64,000 nucleotides of DNA. Origin: a virus. The DNA is taken from positions 7,703 through 71,702 of IMG/VR virus record IMGVR_UViG_3300020118_000165. One strand, given 5' to 3'. The notes below the pieces were generated by a model, which was not told the DNA's origin, did no database searches, and saw only the letters and a program-made list of their open reading frames with translations. Position 1 is the first letter of the stretch. Each line of letters opens with the position of its first letter. Both the position numbers and the translations under genes were made by a program. This document shows, in pieces, positions 4,601-46,738 of the stretch.

Positions 4601-5305
4601 AGAAGCCGCTGAGGTCCCGCCACCCCCACCGCCGCCGCTGCCCGCCGTTCCCGCGGTGTTGGCTGGGCCCCCGCCCGAGCCCCCGATGCCGTTCCCGCCC
4701 GCGCCCCCCGTAGCGGTCGTCGCTTTCGTCCCGGCATTGGCTATGTTCGCTGCACCACCGCCAGAACCGCCAGTTCCAGTCGGCTGAGTTCCACCGTTGC
4801 CGCCCCCAGCGTTAGGCCCGGCAGCTCCGCCTCCTCCACCGCTTCCCGTATTCGTTGCGTTGTTGCTTCCACCAGTTCCACCCGGGTTGAAACCCACCCC
4901 AGGAGCAACAGTATAGGTAACTGGCGGCGTTCCTTGGGTAGCTGTTTGGCCTGATATCCCTCCGTTGCCTCCTGTTTGAGTTAACGCATTCAGTCCATTT
5001 TGCGCTTCGTAACAATTCGTTGCTACCGTATTTAGCCAAAAGGTCCCCGAGGTATTCTGCGTGGTACCGCCGTCACCACCGGCACTAACACGGAAAACAA
5101 AATTTGAAAGGTTGGAAGTCGCGTTCGTGAGCTTGGTATACCCGGCACCGCCTCCTCCTCCACCCCCCTTCGGGTTAGCACCAGTCGTGCCGATAGCGCC
5201 GTTGCCGCCTGCACCGACAAGCTCAACCGTATGGCCAGCATCTTGCCAGTCACCCGGCAAGCTCTGCGGCGAGGTCGTCGTCTTGAGCAGAAAGACTTGG
5301 GTCAT
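1640..5305 (-). CDS. Large virion fibre/decoration protein: Gly-rich N-domain plus ~40 copies of a 20-22 aa A/L/P/S/T repeat (xLALAEAAPxL)
   Basis: 1221 aa; GAGG/GGGGG region to ~aa 315, then tandem repeats such as PPVGALSLAEAAPTLNFNIV. Confidence 0.7.
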   Translation of the reverse strand: MTQVFLLKTTTSPQSLPGDWQDAGHTVELVGAGGNGAIGTTGANPKGGGGGGGAGYTKLTNATSNLSNFVFRVSAGGDGGTTQNTSGTFWLNTVATNCYEAQNGLNALTQTGGNGGISGQTATQGTPPVTYTVAPGVGFNPGGTGGSNNATNTGSGGGGGAAGPNAGGGNGGTQPTGTGGSGGGAANIANAGTKATTATGGAGGNGIGGSGGGPANTAGTAGSGGGGGGGTSAASGTSTAGDGSAQTTTVVWDSTHGPGAGGGGGGQITGNNTGETSTGGKGANYGGGGGGAGGLRGSATQNAGAGADGLIIVTYTPATGTTITPPVASLSSAEAAGTLGFQVPPPVGALSLAEAAPTLNFNIVPPVAALALTESAPTWTNSVFASPSAAAPTLAEAAPSLALLITAPVGALALSEAAPSWTNSVFSVPGVTALALSEAAPALALQVTAPVSALALAEAAPNLNLTQQPGVASLVLAEASPALGFNNPVTASTLALSGAVPALSINVPVGAGALALVEAAPTLAATVNISSSALALSEDAPSWTNSVFAVPAAAALVVAESAPSLALQVATPVQSLVVAEAAPSLQLQVSPPVESLALAEDAPALNLNTPIASGALVLAESAPVVTNSVFSGPSVASLALAEAAPSLSLQVVAPAEALALAEAAPALSLQVAVPADAMVLAEDAPATGLSLVVPSSAVALAAAAPELAFQEAIPDAAIVLDEAAPALTFITVISPPADALLLAATAPELAQEAGIPAAALALAEDAPVLTARASIVPSEGDLALDTVAPRLDLLVTAASSGLALAEDAPALALRAVVEPPADALALSADAPALTLQEAVPEAALGLSADAPALATRTVLAPAEADLAAAEDPPSLGLQVAAPSEALSLAQDPPVVVATASVFEVPSAAALALAEDAPALDQSVSVASAALVAAGDAPALGLTATIPSGALSASEAAPALGLVLTTDTANLALTSAVPQVALTANVGEVPDSAALALTNDSPQVQAGGSVGLVPPAAAVVVAAAVPVVALTENATIAPDAAGAVIDAQAPSLGLSVQVPQADAVLASIAPEVGDQFAPAAGALSAQSAAPALDLLLPVPAAQPVLQAVAPEVTGISVLDVPAANLVLAEDAPQVSTKANLIEVPSSALAIAEDAPQVSVEAGVSVIVPAAAIVAAADAPRLSGRPLRKHLVLIGSRRRGTLTGRKTSAIHLVGRQANYKVAA

Positions 5306-5324
5306 CCTGCCCGCTCATCTCTGC

Positions 5325-5948
5325 TTAGTTGAAGGCAACCAACAGCCCGACGGACCGCCGCGCGGTCCCCAACGTCGGGTTCCAGGTATAGGCCCCGTCC
5401 GTCGGCGCCAGCCGCCCACTCGCGTGCACCGTGAAGGTCGTGGTGGCGATCCCGGACAGAACGTCCGGTCCCCACGCCGCGTCCTGCGTGAACGTGTCGG
5501 TGGACGGCCCCGCCACCCCGAGCGTTGCGAACAATTGCATCCCGGCTTGCGCGTTGACGCTGTAGGACAAGTTGGTTGCGTTGAACCACTCCACGTCCGA
5601 CGAGAACAGACCGCCTTGCACGCCGGTGAAGAAGTAACCCGACATGGCAAAGTCGGCGCGGGCCGATGAAGTCAACGTGATGGTGTCGGCTGTCGTCAAC
5701 GCCTTCGCACCTTGCGGCACCACCAAGTTCACCAAGAATTGCGCGCTCGTCCCCGGCTGCTGCGAGGCTACCTGCGTTTGGTAGTTATTACCTTGCGTGT
5801 CCTGGATCGTAATAGTTGCAGTATCCGGCGCGTTTGTCCCGACGCTCAGGAACAGAAGCGCCCCGGCCGGGAGCGCCGCAGACGGGTGGAACGTCAATGA
5901 GGTGACGTTGCGCTGGAACGCACCGCCGATCGAGGTGGGGTTGGCCAT
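5325..5948 (-). CDS. Virion structural protein (beta-rich)
   Basis: 207 aa, T/S/A-rich, GGAG SD, within the head module. Confidence 0.55.
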   Translation of the reverse strand: MANPTSIGGAFQRNVTSLTFHPSAALPAGALLFLSVGTNAPDTATITIQDTQGNNYQTQVASQQPGTSAQFLVNLVVPQGAKALTTADTITLTSSARADFAMSGYFFTGVQGGLFSSDVEWFNATNLSYSVNAQAGMQLFATLGVAGPSTDTFTQDAAWGPDVLSGIATTTFTVHASGRLAPTDGAYTWNPTLGTARRSVGLLVAFN

Positions 5949-7495: not shown

Positions 7496-8076
7496 CTTTT
7501 CACCACGAACAATCCCATGCCGCACAAATCGCGGGCGTCAACCAGCGTCCCCAACCCGCCGATCCTGTCGCGCCACCACGAGAACGGCTGCACCGTCAGA
7601 TGCAGCTTGTCGCCGATCAGGTGGCCGAAAGTCTCCGGCAAGAACGCTACCTGGAACCAGACCGTCCGGCACTTGCTGAGGATGCGGTCAATGCACAGCA
7701 TCGTGTACTCGGGCGGTATATGCTCCATCACGTCGCAGCAGAAACCGTAGTCCCACCCGAGCGGCCTGTACCATCCCCAGTTCGACCACAGCGGCGCCTC
7801 GATGAAGCGGCGGCGGTCCACCTCTTCAGGCACCGCGGCGTCGGTCAAATCGAGCCACCACACGTCGAGGCCTCGACGCTTGAGCTCTAACCCCGCCACG
7901 CATGCCCCAGCGCCGATGTCGATCAGCGTGGAGCCCGGGGGAGGCTTGATGACCGATATAAACCGATCGACGTTCTCCAGCCCCGGCGAGTACACGTGGT
8001 ACTCGGGGAACTGCCAAACTGCACGATACTTCTCGCGCTCGTTCGCGGCCGTATCGCCGACGTAGATTGCCGTCAT
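7492..8076 (-). CDS. Class I SAM-dependent methyltransferase
   Basis: LIDIGAG motif I, FCCDVMEHIP. Confidence 0.8.
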   Translation of the reverse strand: MTAIYVGDTAANEREKYRAVWQFPEYHVYSPGLENVDRFISVIKPPPGSTLIDIGAGACVAGLELKRRGLDVWWLDLTDAAVPEEVDRRRFIEAPLWSNWGWYRPLGWDYGFCCDVMEHIPPEYTMLCIDRILSKCRTVWFQVAFLPETFGHLIGDKLHLTVQPFSWWRDRIGGLGTLVDARDLCGMGLFVVKR

Positions 8077-16333: not shown

Positions 16334-16542
16334 TGGCCGCTTTTCCCTTTGGGCTGCGGCCCAGGCCCCGATCTACCGGACTGCACGCACGCCGTTCTGT
16401 GGATAGTCCCTTGCGGATTCGCCGCCTTCGCTGTCCAGAGCGCAGCTGCAGCCAAACACTCTTGCCGCGAAGCGTACTGCGTCGGCAGAGTTACGGTAGG
16501 TGGGTTACTGCCGATCGCGAAGTAGAGGATAAGGGTCCACAT
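16330..16542 (-). CDS. Small secreted protein
   Basis: MWTLILYF..., YASRQEC...ACV. Confidence 0.5.
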   Translation of the reverse strand: MWTLILYFAIGSNPPTVTLPTQYASRQECLAAAALWTAKAANPQGTIHRTACVQSGRSGPGPQPKGKSGQ

Positions 16543-16546
16543 CTGC

Positions 16547-18613
16547 TCAATCCTCGTGCACGGTCGCGCGCCAGTCCGGGGCTATTTCTTCGAAGATTTC
16601 CGGTCCAAGCTCAATCGGCCCGCGATACGGCACGACCTTGCTCAGATCCATGCCAGCCGCGTTCCAGCTGATCGTGACGTGCGGGTTGTAGTCGGGATGG
16701 TCCCACGAAGCCCCGGCCAGCTTCGCCTGCTCGTGCCGCCACGCCAGCGCCGAGGACGCGAACACCAGCACCACCGCATCGCCGAACTTCTCCACGAGGC
16801 GCGGCCCCCCGTCCGGAACCGTCAGCCACGCCTGCTCCTCGCCAGCTTTGCCGGCCGGCTCGTAGCTCGGGGAGGCCTCGCCGACCTTGACCCAGTCCAC
16901 CGGGATCTTCGAGAACGCGATCGTGACGTGCATGGAGTCGTCGTCCACAACGGTCTTGAAGCCCTGCGCCTTCGCCCAGCGGCGAATCACGTCGCCGTTG
17001 AGGACTTGGCGGCGGATGTAGAGCGTGCGCGGCGTGGCGTCGCGCAATAGCCCGTCCAGCGGCTTGGCCGGTGGAGAAAGTCCAGGCTTCGGCGCTGCCG
17101 CGGCGAGAGGCTTTCCGGTCACCGGGTCGTATCCAGGCGACCACACCCGCGCCTCGACAACCTCCGGCTCCTCGCCGAACTCCTCGATCGCGTCCTCGAG
17201 GCCAGGATAAGCGCCGTCCTCGATCAGCTGGTTGATGCGCGCCGTGCGCAGCGCGTCCTCATTGATCATGCCGGTATTCACGTCGATCTGGTAGGCCTGC
17301 GCCTTCTTCAACTGCACGTCGGCCGCCTCCCCGGGCTCGGGCAGGTACAGCGGCGACCACGTGTAGTGGATATTGGGATCGTACTTGCCGAGCGCAGACC
17401 GCACGAGCACTTGGTCCAACGGCTCCAGCACCGGCGTGATCTCGTTCTTCTGCTCGCTGGCCACGCCGTCGTAGTAGTTGCGTAGTTCGTCCTGCCCGCT
17501 CGAGGATTTGCCGAGGCCCTTGGCGCCCGCCTTGCCGAACAGGCGGCTGACGGGGAGGTTGCCGGCGCCAGCCACGACCGTCATCAGCTCCGAGACCAAG
17601 TTCGGCAGCCCCCCGAAGTTCGTCTGCACCCTATCCCACTCCTCCTCCACGTCGAGGAGGATGGAGTTGATGGTGGACTTCGATTGGTTGGCCAAAGCGA
17701 AGCGCTGGAGCAGCCGCTGCGCATATTCCTTAGTGGCGATATTCTTGCTGAAGTCCTTGATCTTGATGACGTCCATCTTGGCGTCGTTGACCATGGCCGC
17801 CACGCCGCCGATCGTAAGGCCCCACTCGCGCAGCGTGTCGTCGGCAGTCTGCAGCACCGAGTCGCCCCATCCCCCGCCCATGGGAGCGAGCCTCCAATCC
17901 GGGAGCTCGTTGCCGGCGAACTCGATCACGCGCGACGGATGGATGCGGATCAGGCCGCCGAACGGGACTACCATCCTCTCCCGATCACCCTCGGCCTGCT
18001 GCGGCTTGTAGGCAGGCGCCGGAGCCTGCCCCTGCGCACGCTGCCCGATCGTCAGCACGTTCGTGCTGCTCTGCCCCGGATAGACCTCGCCCTGCTCGAA
18101 GCTAAAGCCGAACAGCGGAGTCTGCACGACATAGTATTCCGGCCGCGTGTACCACTCGCTGTCCACGTTGTAGATGCGGGGCCCGGCAGACAACTCGTAG
18201 CGGTTCATCACCACCACAAACTTGAGCGCACCTTCTTTGACCCCGTCCAAGTTCAGCGGCTCGTCGTTCTGGTTGCCGTCGTCCACGCCCATCACTAAGG
18301 CACCGCCGCCGTACAGCCGCGCCCGGATCAGCGCCATCTTCAGCTTGCGCTGCAGCTTTAGCTTCTTCTCGCATTCCTCGATGGCCTCGATCTGGTCGTT
18401 CGAAGCCTGCCAGGAGCGCCACTCTCTGGTCGCGTCCTCGGCTGGGGCATCCACGATCTTTCGCGCGATCCAGTCGCCACGGTAGGCGTTCTCAAGCTGG
18501 TTGCGGTCGAGAAGCGTAAGAGCATAGTTCGACGAGCGGGCAGGATCTTTAAACGTCCCGAGCGACGTTACAAAGTTGACCAACGTATCAGTTAGCCTAT
18601 GGAGCGTGCCCAT
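16547..18613 (-). CDS. Portal protein (DUF1073-like) fused to a C-terminal 2H phosphoesterase (Acb1/T4 gp57B-like)
   Basis: YRGDWIARKIVDAPAEDATREW, ARLYGG, IHPSRVI, LPVSRLFG, NYYD; C-terminal HVTIAFS and HVTISW motifs. Confidence 0.88.
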   Translation of the reverse strand: MGTLHRLTDTLVNFVTSLGTFKDPARSSNYALTLLDRNQLENAYRGDWIARKIVDAPAEDATREWRSWQASNDQIEAIEECEKKLKLQRKLKMALIRARLYGGGALVMGVDDGNQNDEPLNLDGVKEGALKFVVVMNRYELSAGPRIYNVDSEWYTRPEYYVVQTPLFGFSFEQGEVYPGQSSTNVLTIGQRAQGQAPAPAYKPQQAEGDRERMVVPFGGLIRIHPSRVIEFAGNELPDWRLAPMGGGWGDSVLQTADDTLREWGLTIGGVAAMVNDAKMDVIKIKDFSKNIATKEYAQRLLQRFALANQSKSTINSILLDVEEEWDRVQTNFGGLPNLVSELMTVVAGAGNLPVSRLFGKAGAKGLGKSSSGQDELRNYYDGVASEQKNEITPVLEPLDQVLVRSALGKYDPNIHYTWSPLYLPEPGEAADVQLKKAQAYQIDVNTGMINEDALRTARINQLIEDGAYPGLEDAIEEFGEEPEVVEARVWSPGYDPVTGKPLAAAAPKPGLSPPAKPLDGLLRDATPRTLYIRRQVLNGDVIRRWAKAQGFKTVVDDDSMHVTIAFSKIPVDWVKVGEASPSYEPAGKAGEEQAWLTVPDGGPRLVEKFGDAVVLVFASSALAWRHEQAKLAGASWDHPDYNPHVTISWNAAGMDLSKVVPYRGPIELGPEIFEEIAPDWRATVHED

Positions 18614-40185: not shown

Positions 40186-40505
40186 ATGTTCCTAGAGACG
40201 AAGCGGGGAGGCGAGGCGAAGGATGGTCCTTTTACCCTTTTGGCGCTGATCGCATGGCTGGAACGGCAGCCAGCTGACAAACCGTATAATTACATCTGCA
40301 TGGATGGGCTGTGTTTGTTGGGGCAGTACTTTTCAGCGGTTTGCGAACCAATAACTGGAGTCTCGGCGTATTATGTAGATTCAAATCTAATCCCCTCGCT
40401 CGGATTCCGTTCCCGCCAGCCCTCAATGAGGTAGCTGTTTGGCGTCCGTATACCTTCGGCGCCGCACTTCAGCGGGCCCGCGCGATGCTCGCAAATGCGG
40501 ACTAG
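40186..40505 (+). pseudogene. Conserved phage hypothetical protein, frameshifted near 40395
   Basis: LIAWLERQP...CLLGQYF in one frame; PYTFGAALQRAR in another. Confidence 0.5.
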
Positions 40506-41157
40506 GCGTCCCCGCTCCTACATCCCACTGCCCGAGCGGCTCGCCGCGGCGCTGGCCTGCCTGCTTCCCCCAGAGCAGAGCGAAGAACTCCGTCGGCGTA
40601 AGGCACCCGCGCAAGAGGTTCTGGCTCTATTTGAGTTCGAGCAGGGCAATGGCTGGTGGGATACTATTTTGAAAAGAGCCCCTAATCAGCCCCTCGACTT
40701 CGGCGAGGTCTGGCTGCCGATCCGCGGCTATGAGGGGATTTATGAGGTCTCTAACTATGGCCGCGTTCGGTCTCTGCCACGGACTTATATCCGGATATGT
40801 CATGTAAAGAAACGGATACTGAGCACCAAAAGTGGTCCCGATGGCTATCCGCGAGCGAACCTATGCGTAGATGGAAAACCAGCGACTCGGCTCGTCCATC
40901 AATTGGTAGCAGAGGCATTCATCGGGCCGTGCCCTCCCGGAAAGCTTGTTTGCCACAATGATGGAACACGGAAGAACTCGAAACTGTCAAATCTTCGCTA
41001 TGACACTAATTCTGGCAATATGGCCGACAGGTTGATCCATGAAACGTCCAACCGATTCCGAACGCCGAAAAAATATCCCAATCAAGATAAAATTAGCGTC
41101 CGCGCTGCTCGCGCTGTGCGATATCCCTTACGAGGACGCAAAACAAATGACCGCTGA
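40495..41157 (+). CDS. NUMOD4-HNH homing endonuclease
   Basis: W.PIRGYEGIYEVSNYGRVRS; VHQLVAEAF, VCHNDG...N...NL. Confidence 0.9.
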   Translation: MRTRRPRSYIPLPERLAAALACLLPPEQSEELRRRKAPAQEVLALFEFEQGNGWWDTILKRAPNQPLDFGEVWLPIRGYEGIYEVSNYGRVRSLPRTYIRICHVKKRILSTKSGPDGYPRANLCVDGKPATRLVHQLVAEAFIGPCPPGKLVCHNDGTRKNSKLSNLRYDTNSGNMADRLIHETSNRFRTPKKYPNQDKISVRAARAVRYPLRGRKTNDR

Positions 41158-41428
41158 TCAAATCATCTCTCTCTATCATTTTGATCATGGAATTTTGCAT
41201 GCGATCGAGCCGATCAATGAGCCATGGAATCTAACCCCAAGGCTCATTGCCGCCCACCGCGAGAAGTCCCGCCGCGACACCTCGATCGTCGCCAAGTCTC
41301 GGCGCATAGACAAGAAGTGGAGCGAGGTCACCGCGGCGATGGCGCGGGGGCGAAAGCCGCCGAGGCGCGCGAGCAAGTGGCCGCGCCGGAAGATGATGTC
41401 GGGCAACCGATGGAGAAGCGGAAAATGA
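41039..41428 (+). CDS. HNH-like small protein
   Basis: HFDH...NEPWNL.P.....HREK; basic tail. Confidence 0.6.
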   Translation: MKRPTDSERRKNIPIKIKLASALLALCDIPYEDAKQMTADQIISLYHFDHGILHAIEPINEPWNLTPRLIAAHREKSRRDTSIVAKSRRIDKKWSEVTAAMARGRKPPRRASKWPRRKMMSGNRWRSGK

Positions 41429-41610
41429 CCATCGACAGACAGCACGGGAAGCAGAGCGTCACCTGCGACGCTTGCGGCGAGCAGATAGAGCGCGGTTCGG
41501 ACTGCATGCACTTCGACGAGTGGGTCGACGCGCTGAAAGACGAGGGTTGGCGTTTCTACAAGCGCCGCGGCGATTGGCAGCACGAGTGCCCGCAATGCAA
41601 CGGAAAATGA
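41425..41610 (+). CDS. Small Zn-binding protein
   Basis: CDAC...GW...H.CPQC. Confidence 0.6.
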   Translation: MTIDRQHGKQSVTCDACGEQIERGSDCMHFDEWVDALKDEGWRFYKRRGDWQHECPQCNGK

Positions 41611-41699: not shown

Positions 41700-42038
41700 A
41701 TGATAGTTAAGGTCCTGGAACTCCGCGACGCCGGCACATTTATCCCGGTCATTTGCATCAAGCCGGTGCCCGAGAACGAGGGGCAGCGCTACCTCCTGCG
41801 CCGCGACGGCTACTCGTGCAACCCGATGGATCGGCTTGTCATTATGATCAACGCGCAGTGCCGTGGCGCGGCTTACGACCCCTACGACTGGCGCGACGCC
41901 CGCACCAAGCGGACGGCGCACATCTACATCCAGGAGAAGTGGGAAGACCTCCGGGACGGCGACGTGATCGACGTTCAATTCCTGCTAGGCGAGACCGACA
42001 AGCCGAAGGTCAGCGAGCGGGAGACCGCGCCATGCTGA
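41700..42038 (+). CDS. Conserved phage hypothetical protein
   Basis: ELRDAGTFIP...YDPYDW...GDVIDVQFLLGET. Confidence 0.65.
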   Translation: MIVKVLELRDAGTFIPVICIKPVPENEGQRYLLRRDGYSCNPMDRLVIMINAQCRGAAYDPYDWRDARTKRTAHIYIQEKWEDLRDGDVIDVQFLLGETDKPKVSERETAPC

Positions 42039-42209
42039 CCACCCCGCAGTTCGTCGCCACCGTCCTCCTCGCGGCGGTCTTCGTCGCCGGCAGCACGGCG
42101 ATGATGGTCGCCTTCGGCGTCCGCTGGATTCACCCGCCGCCGAGCCACCAATGCGTCCATCCCACGGCGATGCCGGCGACGTGGTTCGGCGACTGTCGCC
42201 CATAAATAT

Positions 42210-42238
42210 TTGCAGCGGGCGGCAGGATTTGCTAGAAT
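42210..42238 (+). promoter_or_regulatory. sigma70-like promoter
   Basis: TTGCAG-N17-TAGAAT. Confidence 0.65.
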
Positions 42239-42247
42239 ACGAATCTT

Positions 42248-42357
42248 GGCGTGGCTCGATAGGGCAACGTTAGGTAAGGTCAGGTTGAGTTGGGCGTGGC
42301 TTGGCGGGGTCTGGCATGGTCAGGCAAGGTCCGGCACGATCTGGTGAGGCAAGGTTT
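42248..42357 (+). repeat. Pentamer-periodic tract, 22 units of mostly GGYNN
   Basis: ggcgt ggctc gatag ggcaa ... ggcaa ggttt in strict 5-nt register. Confidence 0.9.
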
Positions 42358-42365
42358 TTCTTCCG

Positions 42366-42477
42366 CGGCGATCAACGCGGTTAGAAGCGGCATCAAACAC
42401 GAATCTCCTTCGCGTTCGGTGTCGCAGATGCGACCCCTGAAACCGCTTCCGGGCTTGATCGGCCGGCGCGAAGGAGA
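42366..42477 (+). ncRNA. Candidate pseudoknotted leader RNA (element D)
   Basis: Two 7-bp stems, one 5-6-bp hairpin and an 11-bp loop pairing in pseudoknot order. Confidence 0.55.
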
Positions 42478-42517
42478 CCTACATTGGCAAGCGCAAAAGT
42501 CATCGCGATTAGTGAGC

Positions 42518-42592
42518 GGCGCGGCCAGGTTTGGTTAGGCGCGCTGAGGTTGGGCCCGGCGGGGCAAGGTCCGGCAAGGTATGGCAAGGTTT
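42518..42592 (+). repeat. Pentamer-periodic tract, 15 units of mostly GGYNN
   Basis: Ends ggcaa ggttt like the first tract. Confidence 0.9.
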
Positions 42593-42615
42593 TTAATTCC
42601 CGATGGAGAAAAAAT

Positions 42616-43563
42616 ATGGAAGCTAAACTATGGGATGGAGCACCGATCAACGTGCCTGGGCTTTATCGCGGTATTCCGCTTGAATCCTATCATTCTAGCG
42701 TCATCTGTATCGGGCCATCTATCAGCTCATCTGGCCTGCGCTGCATCGACCCAGATAATGGCGGGAGTCCTGCGCATTTTTATTCGCGGTGGAGCGGCAA
42801 CCCGCGCCGCGTCGAGCAGAAGGACCCGAAGCACTTCATCATCGGCCGCGCGGTTCATCATCTGATGTTGGGCGAAAAATGGTTCAGTAGATTGTTCAGC
42901 ATCAGGCCAGAATCATATCCTGATAGGAGGGTTTCGAACGTCATGAAGCCGTGGCACTCGAATCGATTGGAGTGCCGCGCGTGGCTCGACAACCAGGAGC
43001 GGCTCGGCAAGTCGGTGCTGACGGCGGCCGACGTGGAGAACATCAAGGGGATGGCCGAGTCGCTCGCGCGCCTTCCGCTGGTGCGCGCCGGCATCCTCAA
43101 CGGCCAGATCGAGCGCAGCATCTTCTGGAAGGACGAGGAGACCGGCGTGTGGCTCAAGGCGCGGCCTGACGCGATACCGACGGGGTCGGGTGATTTTTGC
43201 GATTTGAAAAGTTGCCAGTCGGTCGCTTGGCCGGACCTCATGCGCCAAATTACTGAGCACCGCTATCACCAACAGGCCGCTTGCGTCCGCACCGCCGCCG
43301 TCGAAGTCCTCGGCATCCCGAAGGAGCGGTTCACCTTCACGCTCGTGTTCGTCGAGAAGGAGAATCCCTGGTGCGGCCGCACCGTTCAACTCAAGCCCGA
43401 CGACCTCGACATGGGCGAGAAGCAGAACCGCAAAGCCATCAACATCTTCGCCTCGTGCCTCAAAACCGGCGATTGGCCGGGGCCAGGAGAGAACGACGAC
43501 GCGCCGTTCATTGATTTGCAGGACCACTATCGCAATAGGATCGCGCAGAGGCTGGCGTCATGA
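42616..43563 (+). CDS. RecE-like (DUF3799, PD-(D/E)XK) exonuclease
   Basis: YH...ISSSGL, G.AVH, E.SIFW.DEETGVWLKARPD, DLKS, Y..QAA. Confidence 0.88.
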   Translation: MEAKLWDGAPINVPGLYRGIPLESYHSSVICIGPSISSSGLRCIDPDNGGSPAHFYSRWSGNPRRVEQKDPKHFIIGRAVHHLMLGEKWFSRLFSIRPESYPDRRVSNVMKPWHSNRLECRAWLDNQERLGKSVLTAADVENIKGMAESLARLPLVRAGILNGQIERSIFWKDEETGVWLKARPDAIPTGSGDFCDLKSCQSVAWPDLMRQITEHRYHQQAACVRTAAVEVLGIPKERFTFTLVFVEKENPWCGRTVQLKPDDLDMGEKQNRKAINIFASCLKTGDWPGPGENDDAPFIDLQDHYRNRIAQRLAS

Positions 43564-45643: not shown

Positions 45644-46738
45644 ATGAACGACGCAACAGAAGTGAGAACAGAAGTGAGAGAACCGGAGATCACGGTCGTC
45701 AAGAACGAGGCCCGCGAGGCTGCGATGATGATCCCGGTGGAATCGGCAGGCGTGACCCTGCAGAACTTTGCCCAGCAGGTGGACTACGCGAAATGGATGG
45801 CGCAGGCCGGGTTCGCGATCAACAAGGATCTGCGCGAGAACGTCGGCGCTTGCCTCGCCGTCCTCGATATGTCGCAGCGGTGGGGGTTCGCGCCCTACCA
45901 GGTCGCGCGGCTCTGCTACCAGGTAAACGGGACGATGGCGCTGGAGAGTCAGTTGATCCACGCGGTTATCGAGAAGTTCGCCCCGCTCGCGCAGCGCCTG
46001 CGGTGCTCGTACGAGGGCGAGGGCGCGGACCGAAGGTGCATCGTCACCGGGCACATCAGGGGGGAGGTCGATCCGCTGATCTACACTTCGCCGAAAGTCG
46101 GGAACATCAAGCCCAAAAATTCACCGCTTTGGTCGACCGACGTTGACCAACAATTATGGTATTTCTCGAGCCGCTCCTGGTGCCGCAAATACTGCCCCGA
46201 CATCCTGATGGGCATCTATGGCCGGGACGAGGTCATGGATTCCAACATCGGCGCGGCGAACGCCATCGACGTGTCCCCCGGCGTCGCAGCCGGCCTGCAC
46301 GAGCGCCTCAAGGAGGCCAAGGCCAACGGCGCGGCCGAGGAGGGCTTCCAGGACGGGGCCGTCCATGCCGAGCTGGAGGCCGGCCAGGACGAGCAGGCGA
46401 AGCCGCCCAGGGGCCGGGGCAAGAAGGCGGCTACCGAGCCAGCCCCGGCGCAGACCACCATCAGCGGCCACGCCAAGCCCGCTGAGGGCCATTCCGAGAA
46501 GAAGGCAGAGGAGGCCAAGCCGGAGCCGAAGGCCGAGCCCAAGCTGCCCAAGACCGTGAAGCAGTACCGGCAGTGGGTCGTCGGCTGGCTACCGACGCTC
46601 GATTCGGCCGACGCCATCGACGACCGCTGGCGGGAGGAGAGAAAGTTGCGCAACGCCTGTGGCCTCGTCGAGGACGAGAGAAAAGAGGTCAAGCTCTTGG
46701 TCGACGGGCGGGTGGCCGCGTTGAGGGGAGGTGCATGA
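45644..46738 (+). CDS. RecT-family single-strand annealing protein
   Basis: ESQL..AV, NSPLW..D..QQL.Y...R.WCR.YCPD.LMG.Y..DE; same operon as the RecE-like gene. Confidence 0.85.
   Translation: MNDATEVRTEVREPEITVVKNEAREAAMMIPVESAGVTLQNFAQQVDYAKWMAQAGFAINKDLRENVGACLAVLDMSQRWGFAPYQVARLCYQVNGTMALESQLIHAVIEKFAPLAQRLRCSYEGEGADRRCIVTGHIRGEVDPLIYTSPKVGNIKPKNSPLWSTDVDQQLWYFSSRSWCRKYCPDILMGIYGRDEVMDSNIGAANAIDVSPGVAAGLHERLKEAKANGAAEEGFQDGAVHAELEAGQDEQAKPPRGRGKKAATEPAPAQTTISGHAKPAEGHSEKKAEEAKPEPKAEPKLPKTVKQYRQWVVGWLPTLDSADAIDDRWREERKLRNACGLVEDERKEVKLLVDGRVAALRGGA

Follow-up and report, generated by a model that had tools for sequence, protein, structure and literature searches.

What kind of RNA is specified by the non-coding stretch at 42206–42615, which is bordered by a small hydrophobic ORF on one side and by a RecE-family exonuclease gene on the other, in a complete viral genome of 71.7 kb with direct terminal repeats (IMG/VR record IMGVR_UViG_3300020118_000165)? 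Coordinates refer to the window, the whole 64,000-nt stretch of DNA that was analysed (positions 7,703 to 71,702 of the record). An initial annotation, made from the letters alone, took this leader for an unrecognised riboswitch-like or protein-binding RNA that controls recombination genes. The analysis described here points elsewhere: the leader probably carries two solo vrRNAs, i.e., guide RNAs of the VIPR system carried by a phage that has no vipr gene, and the tracts most likely borrow the Vipr protein of a rival element rather than regulate recE.

Organization of the leader

The leader and its borders comprise the following features.

42033..42205, plus strand: small upstream ORF of 57 amino acids, hydrophobic, as read from the sequence; it forms the left border of the leader
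42210..42238, plus strand: sigma-70-like promoter candidate with an extended -10 element (TTGCAG-17-TGcTAGAAT), a consensus match only
42248..42357, with a T-run to 42359, plus strand: tract 1, putative vrRNA 1, 22 in-phase GG[C/T]NN units followed by T5
42360..42517, plus strand: non-coding core, or spacer, of 158 nt with nested stems and an 11-bp pairing
42518..42592, with a T-run to 42594, plus strand: tract 2, putative vrRNA 2, 15 GG[C/T]NN units (one degenerate) followed by T5
42605..42609, plus strand: Shine-Dalgarno sequence of recE (GGAGA), 10 nt past the T-run and 6 nt ahead of the ATG
42616..43563, plus strand: RecE-family PD-(D/E)XK exonuclease gene, 315 amino acids (PF12684, E 7.3e-17)

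The ATG of the small upstream ORF overlaps the stop of the preceding ORF, and a family search with the longer frames that overlap it gives no match. Downstream of this ORF, the letters of the promoter named in the initial annotation are all in place, with TTGCAG at 42210–42215, a 17-nt spacer, TAGAAT at 42233–42238, and the TG of the extended element at 42230–42231. The scan tool registers the site in a slightly different version, TTTGCA-18-TAGAAT, with nine of 12 matches, and finds it as the sole such site in 2 kb. Because shuffled sequences yield 0.7 ± 0.9 sites, the promoter-like site is not significant by itself. The consensus would place the start of transcription at ~42245, 3 nt 5' of the first GGYNN unit.

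The two pentamer tracts, described initially as 22 GGNNN units and then 15 more, are both in phase and required small corrections of their coordinates. GG is present in 18 of the 22 units of tract 1, where units 3, 5, 9, and 19 are degenerate, and in 14 of the 15 units of tract 2. The third position is stricter still, being C or T in every unit of tract 1 (22/22) and tract 2 (15/15), and thus A in none of the 37. By comparison, the last two positions vary, with 14 different NN dinucleotides in tract 1 and 10 in tract 2. Units 10–22 of tract 1 (13 units, one degenerate) look intact, whereas units 1–9 hold the three other degenerate units. Each tract runs into a run of five T (42355–42359 and 42590–42594), and the common end that had been recorded as ggcaaggtttt is indeed shared by both, as GGCAAGGTTTTT (GGCAAGG plus T5). 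In a period-5 GG scan over both strands of the whole 71.7-kb genome, these two tracts are the only ones to give windows with at least eight GG in 10; the highest count elsewhere is seven on the plus strand and six on the minus strand.

This periodicity had been likened to the binding sites of repeat-wrapping proteins such as TRAP. In the unstructured trp leader of Bacillus, (G/U)AG triplets lie ~5 nt apart and are wrapped by this multi-subunit protein. Short triplets ~5 nt apart, suited to being wrapped by a multi-subunit protein, are likewise found here. The triplet is GGY, however, and A is never at position 3 (0/37 units); no terminator/antiterminator pair accompanies the tracts, which are associated with a RAMP family instead, and no TRAP gene (PF02081) is detected in the phage at E ≤ 10. 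The comparison with TRAP itself therefore fails. The broader notion, that of a multi-subunit protein gripping the RNA unit by unit, agrees well with Vipr, a Cas7-like RAMP, as portrayed in the preprints introduced below.

Pentamer tracts and the Vipr protein across viruses

Nine consecutive GGYNN units are found in at least 120 viral contigs in a scan of IMG/VR, where ~0.003 would be expected by chance (our own estimate). Most of the matched contigs carry several tracts of 45–115 nt, often as arrays with conserved spacers, and a few carry uninterrupted arrays of 700–900 nt. The tracts tend to be co-oriented with flanking genes: their strand is shared by the upstream gene at 84 of 109 loci and by the downstream gene at 70 of 104, counts that are blurred by spurious ORFs. 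All-against-all clustering of 1496 neighbouring ORFs gives one dominant family of ~200 amino acids (56 loci), which an HMM places beside the tracts in 89 of the 120 loci listed, and whose gene often terminates 0–20 nt ahead of the first tract. The family has no Pfam model and corresponds to phrog_4652, labelled 'unknown function' in PHROGs. A profile built from 28 of its sequences matches PDB entry 36pp_D, 'SUSP1 Vipr protein' (E 1.9e-31), a single solved structure. In addition, an AlphaFold model of the family (pLDDT 91.1) matches Csm3/Cas7 subunits of type III CRISPR complexes, the best match being 6xn3_F (E 7.8e-07, TM 0.61). Judged by this profile match and the predicted fold, phrog_4652 is the Vipr RAMP. 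A second family, phrog_15946, adjoins tracts at 25 loci and probably represents an accessory protein of the system.

VIPR (Viral Interference Programmable Repeat) is described in a preprint as a Vipr RAMP of ~200 amino acids that acts with vrRNAs, each made of 9–16 YNNGG repeats and a conserved 3' tail, which in the SUSP1 clade is a pseudoknot (bioRxiv 10.64898/2026.04.26.720920). According to the same account, the NN bases pair with dsDNA while one base is skipped per unit, on either strand and without a PAM; the Vipr–vrRNA complex represses transcription; internal degeneracy of the repeats is frequent; the system has seven types; and RAMPs show little similarity in sequence. The published vrRNA caller asks for at least four tandem units, 9–16 being typical. 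A further preprint reports that satellites, as well as 346 enterobacterial phages that are vipr-null, have 'solo' vrRNAs, which borrow Vipr in trans and lead it to decoys, to rivals' vipr genes, or to rivals' vrRNAs (Lopez et al., bioRxiv 10.64898/2026.10.15.759431). The class of RNA called unrecognised in the initial annotation had thus been described in these 2026 preprints, both as vrRNAs and as solo vrRNAs, and the two tracts are a further case of a known RNA type.

Several other readings of the tracts were rejected. A coding repeat is incompatible with a period of five, and the ORFs over the arrays lie on mixed strands. GGA is avoided in the tracts, which speaks against a CsrA sponge, and the third base is mostly C, which speaks against an array of Shine-Dalgarno sequences. 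An iteron or centromere acting as DNA is at odds with tracts that are strand-specific, co-oriented with genes, and tied to an RNA-binding RAMP.

The 3' end of the two tracts defines a class of its own. Four GGYNN units followed by GGCAAGGTTTTT are found at 38 viral loci of IMG/VR, with 44 tract ends (~0.007 expected by chance), and 27 of the 38 have Vipr, by HMM, within the fetched flank. At these loci a ribosome site and a start codon come next, within ~10–25 nt of the T-run. The start is very often that of vipr (as at L221, L227, L242, L243, L235, and L236) and sometimes that of another gene; the spacing between T-run and ribosome site that is seen at recE also precedes vipr and other genes. 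No consistent -10 element lies directly 5' of the tracts at the other same-handle loci. At locus L089 the order is vrRNA, vipr, vrRNA, and a YqaJ exonuclease gene (PF09588, E 2.7e-29); in the window it is vrRNA, core, vrRNA, and the RecE exonuclease gene, which is the L089 layout with the core replacing vipr.

Like the vrRNAs of complete VIPR systems, the two tracts are phage-borne, alternate a fixed GGY with a variable NN, show internal degeneracy, and carry a handle found mostly beside Vipr. They differ in that neither a vipr nor an accessory gene is present, and in that tract 1 has 22 units against the typical 9–16. The arrangement also resembles a CRISPR crRNA on its Cas7 backbone, where RAMP subunits form a filament that holds the guide at regular intervals and breaks up its pairing, and the predicted structure of Vipr folds like Csm3 of CRISPR complexes. 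However, the period is 5 with two pairing bases per unit in VIPR, whereas it is 6 with five in a CRISPR crRNA, and the locus is devoid of CRISPR repeats, cas genes, and an adaptation module.

With the solo vrRNAs of VIPR-null phages, as published, the locus shares GG[C/T]NN arrays that have a clade-typical 3' end, a contig without vipr, one or two guides per locus, and a position at which relatives in the class have a vipr locus. Differences stand beside these likenesses. The carrier is a soil/rhizosphere phage, whose closest RecE among named phages is that of Brucella phage BiPBO1 (37%), whereas the published carriers are enterobacterial. At the 3' end, GGCAAGG-U5 adjoins a ribosome site, whereas SUSP1 has a pseudoknot tail of ~40 nt. 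A structured spacer of 158 nt separates the two guides. The locus is therefore a vipr-less vrRNA carrier in a complete soil-phage genome, with a different 3' end and an unusual structured spacer. VIPR was described only in 2026, in the two preprints, and the surveys of solo guides to date cover enterobacterial phages and their satellites; with the present locus, guide-only parasitism of an RNA-guided system would extend over a wider range than was known.

If the tracts do act as guides, an RNA beginning at ~42245 would carry both of them, each ending in the class handle GGCAAGG-U5. Vipr subunits supplied by a co-infecting phage, a resident prophage, or a satellite would assemble along each tract, one subunit per GGY, and would leave the two variable bases exposed, following the mechanism given in the preprints. 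The complex would then bind dsDNA in which the bases matching successive NN pairs are separated by one that is skipped (xNNxNN...), and would block transcription there. Such a solo guide could turn the machinery of a rival on a target chosen by its carrier, or could divert that machinery to a decoy. The place before recE would reflect where VIPR loci sit in phages, in the early recombination module, rather than control of recE: among the VIPR loci sampled, six adjoin RecT-like genes and four, by clustering, RecE-like genes, which makes a position in the recombination module typical of the system. For annotation, we suggest that GGY tracts with a period of five, when met in the leader of a phage gene, be taken for vrRNAs instead of candidate riboswitches.

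Some further observations concern the distribution of the system. At L110 (2228–3667) vrRNA tracts lie directly 5' of a portal gene (PF05133), and at L104 (10879–11847) directly 5' of a baseplate-hub gene (PF09931/PF09356), so VIPR tracts are not limited to early or recombination modules. The arrays of L065 (minus strand, ~4713–5589, ~175 units) and L021 (6301–7025, ~145 units) are uninterrupted, with neither spacers nor tails that could be recognised, and greatly exceed the 9–16 units of single vrRNAs; they may correspond to the 'staggered arrays' of which a bioRxiv preprint speaks. GenBank has 130 phage records with Vipr homologues, among them those of Felixounavirus-like coliphages and of Gordonia, Mycobacterium, and Pseudomonas phages; the homologue is called 'hypothetical protein' in every listed row that has an annotation. 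In Pseudomonas phage Medea1 (MW862109.1; L255, 2560–2700) a GGYNN tract lies downstream of the gene pair. A control search found matches to phrog_4652 in Caulobacter vibrioides and Thermotoga maritima.

Searches for a vipr gene and for targets

The reading of the tracts as solo guides depends on the phage having no Vipr of its own. Neither phrog_4652 nor phrog_15946 matches the complete genome at E ≤ 10. The Vipr HMM, run with filters off over 1019 six-frame ORFs, gives a best E of 0.7, and the Vipr profile A1 has no match in the genome; as a positive control, the A1 search detected Vipr in two of 10 other records. With 113 Vipr ORFs as queries, tblastn against the complete genome reaches E 0.008 at best. 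A weak Vipr signal at 16526–17431 of the window was rejected, as a 688-aa gene on the other strand spans it and the hhalign probability is 1.5%. The published cut-off for a solo vrRNA is the lack of a Vipr tblastn match at 1e-10 on the contig, or within 20 kb; with no vipr found and no match of that strength in the genome, the tracts are classed as solo vrRNAs.

Vipr is a very diverse protein, with seven types in the first preprint, and a divergent one could escape the profiles; the phage might then encode a complete system with the tracts as its own guides. The little sequence similarity among the RAMPs (bioRxiv 10.64898/2026.04.26.720920) and the many ORFs of this phage that have no family assignment are compatible with such a system. 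However, the Viprs that lie beside same-handle vrRNAs are detected by HMM at E 1e-19 to 1e-67, which puts the cognate class within reach of the profile. The filters-off HMM, profile, and tblastn searches returned noise, and neither tract is abutted by an ORF of ~200 amino acids. We regard a complete but divergent system as highly improbable.

A vipr-less genome also appears to be uncommon in the class. Eleven same-handle loci lack Vipr in the flank, and for 10 of them (all but L253) the search was extended to the whole record. Both of the records that are at least 90% complete (2/2) carry Vipr elsewhere, and the other eight are fragments, 9–45% complete; a complete vipr-less carrier is thus uncommon in the class, as far as so small a sample indicates.

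The two guides are concrete ones, and their targets could reveal whom the phage fights. Targets were scored as published, with the NN dinucleotides joined by one wildcard, on both strands, and with shuffled guides as the null. In the phage's own genome, the best matches with 1-nt skips (23/42 and 18/30) are the same as those of shuffled guides. The 254 fetched loci contain no target at identity 0.8 beyond shuffles, and four exact 10-unit windows, two per tract, have no match in viral_contigs; no match points to one of the published target classes (vipr, vrRNA, satellite, repeat decoy). The full 21-unit guide of tract 1 finds its best match in L125 (28/42, identity 0.67), where 40 shuffled guides reach a maximum of 27; L125 had been fetched through a chance pattern match, and its match is treated as noise.

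These results bear on another explanation, in which the tracts are the leftover of a VIPR locus whose vipr gene, together with the accessory gene, was deleted, and which is still transcribed in the recE leader with no role as a guide. The complete genome without vipr, the searches that found no target, and a layout equal to that of L089 minus vipr are what such a deletion would leave, and a similar vipr-vap1 deletion is reported in SUSP1-like phages (bioRxiv 10.64898/2026.10.15.759431). Tract 1 is moreover longer and more degenerate (4/22 units) than same-handle vrRNAs, among which one of 44 reaches 18% degenerate units; its length and degeneracy fit partial decay, in which the first nine units may be decaying while the last 13 look like a normal guide. 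Against a mere leftover, the exact 12-nt handle is kept in both tracts, as is the C or T at position 3 throughout, and tract 2 and units 10–22 of tract 1 are as clean as the vrRNAs that adjoin vipr genes. The promoter-like site lies just ahead of unit 1, the three frames of the core hold no Vipr remnant or other trace of vipr coding sequence, and the second preprint describes solo guides in use in vipr-null phages (bioRxiv 10.64898/2026.10.15.759431). We consider a functionless leftover unlikely, and two working solo guides remain the preferred reading.

The structured core and the recE gene

The stems that the initial annotation saw in the core are present at 42369–42461. CGATCAA (42369–42375) pairs with TTGATCG (42455–42461); the arms with GAAGCGG and CCGCTTC (42384–42395 and 42438–42449) are 83% complementary; and the innermost arms, with GTCGC and GCGAC, lie at 42418–42426 and 42429–42437. 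The loop pairing is perfect, with TCTCCTTCGCG at 42404–42414 and CGCGAAGGAGA at 42467–42477 forming 11 bp. Its 5' arm lies within the nested stems and its 3' arm outside them, so the topology is that of a pseudoknot or of an alternative fold. The minimum-energy fold places the CGCGAAGGAG segment opposite CUUCCGCG (42360–42367), directly after the T-run of tract 1, which gives the segment 42467–42477 two alternative partners. When the core was simulated 500 times with a first-order Markov model, a perfect inverted repeat of 11 bp was reached three times. The folding energies, obtained by single-sequence folding, are ordinary, the z-score being -1.05 for the complete leader and -1.6 for its core.

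The core has no similar sequence among 217 loci or in the rest of the genome (blastn and nhmmer), and none of the known vrRNA tails examined resembles it. The tail-junction pattern GGCAAGGTTTTT-N1-2-TTCC has 89 matches, about the chance number, none with an upstream tract. A blastn search against phages for close relatives from which covariation could be read gave none. A hammerhead or other ribozyme was rejected, as no Rfam family matches and the stems are nested rather than arranged in a three-way junction. We propose that the core is a lineage-specific spacer.

The gene that follows is a neighbour of the tract element and not a component of it. Its product matches phrog_412, 'exonuclease VIII' (E 2.3e-63), and a RecT-like gene is located at 45644–46738. 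Alignments with RecE homologues of named phages begin at residue 6 of the version that starts at ATG 42616, which points to this ATG as the likely start. Tract 2 lies in the 5' untranslated region of recE, its T-run ending 21 nt before the ATG. The AAGGAG that precedes TTG 42484 in the recE frame, recorded initially, is present in the sequence (42471–42476, 7 nt 5' of the TTG) and is spanned by the 11-bp pairing. The frame from this TTG is in phase with recE and open across tract 2 into the gene (44 codons, 42484–42615); rather than an extension of the N-terminus, it is probably a by-product of the scarcity of stops in the G-rich tract.

The initial annotation inferred from these elements that the leader acts in cis, as a riboswitch-like or protein-titrated RNA, TRAP-like or built of two-tier G-quadruplexes, that sets the expression of recE and recT, with the 11-bp pairing hiding or exposing the AAGGAG ribosome site. 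The proximity of tract 2, which stops 10 nt short of the recE Shine-Dalgarno sequence, lends itself to this idea, as does a pairing over an SD-like sequence that is rare by chance. A (GGNNN)n sequence can in principle form two-tier quadruplexes, and the pattern of the tracts permits them. A quadruplex, however, requires neither a strict C or T at position 3 nor a variable NN, and does not account for the link to Vipr. No Rfam family matches 42206–42615 at E ≤ 10, matches outside the leader being chance ones, and the window as a whole contains no known cis-regulatory RNA at the Rfam gathering score; a riboswitch would fit poorly with this and with the ordinary fold z-scores. The AAGGAG and TTG precede no plausible gene, the frame having to cross tract 2 while RecE homologues start near ATG 42616. 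Comparison between loci gives no support to control of the recombination genes either. RecE-based searches of genome, viral, and metagenome contigs yielded eight recE-homologue loci (27–45% identity), none of which has GG tracts (0/8); the tract family is tied to the RAMP protein and not to recE, and elsewhere the same arrangement precedes vipr and various other genes. A cis-acting recE leader is, on these grounds, very unlikely.

The core may nevertheless take part in what happens on the tracts. One scheme has the Vipr of a rival assembling on both tracts, stripping the flanks of the core and remodelling it, so that CGCGAAGGAGA would switch partner between TCTCCTTCGCG and CUUCCGCG and the output of recE and recT would change. 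Only in the presence of a competitor armed with VIPR would the recombination genes then be switched on or shut off. We give this scheme very little credence. In a milder version, the core would be a new kind of element that serves to process or load the vrRNAs of the GGCAAGG-U5 class.

The surroundings of the leader include two further genes. About 1 kb 5' of it, an HNH homing-type endonuclease (NUMOD4 plus HNH_3) is encoded at 40495–41157 of the window, and the small protein encoded at 41224–41610, with a CxxC...CxxC near its C-terminus, matches phrog_17873, of unknown function. A search for sequencing runs that contain this stretch listed no RNA run. The segment 41950–42950 of the window, which contains the leader, is covered by contigs of four soil metagenome runs, each from a different study, with no differing letter, so the same phage sequence recurs unchanged across samples.
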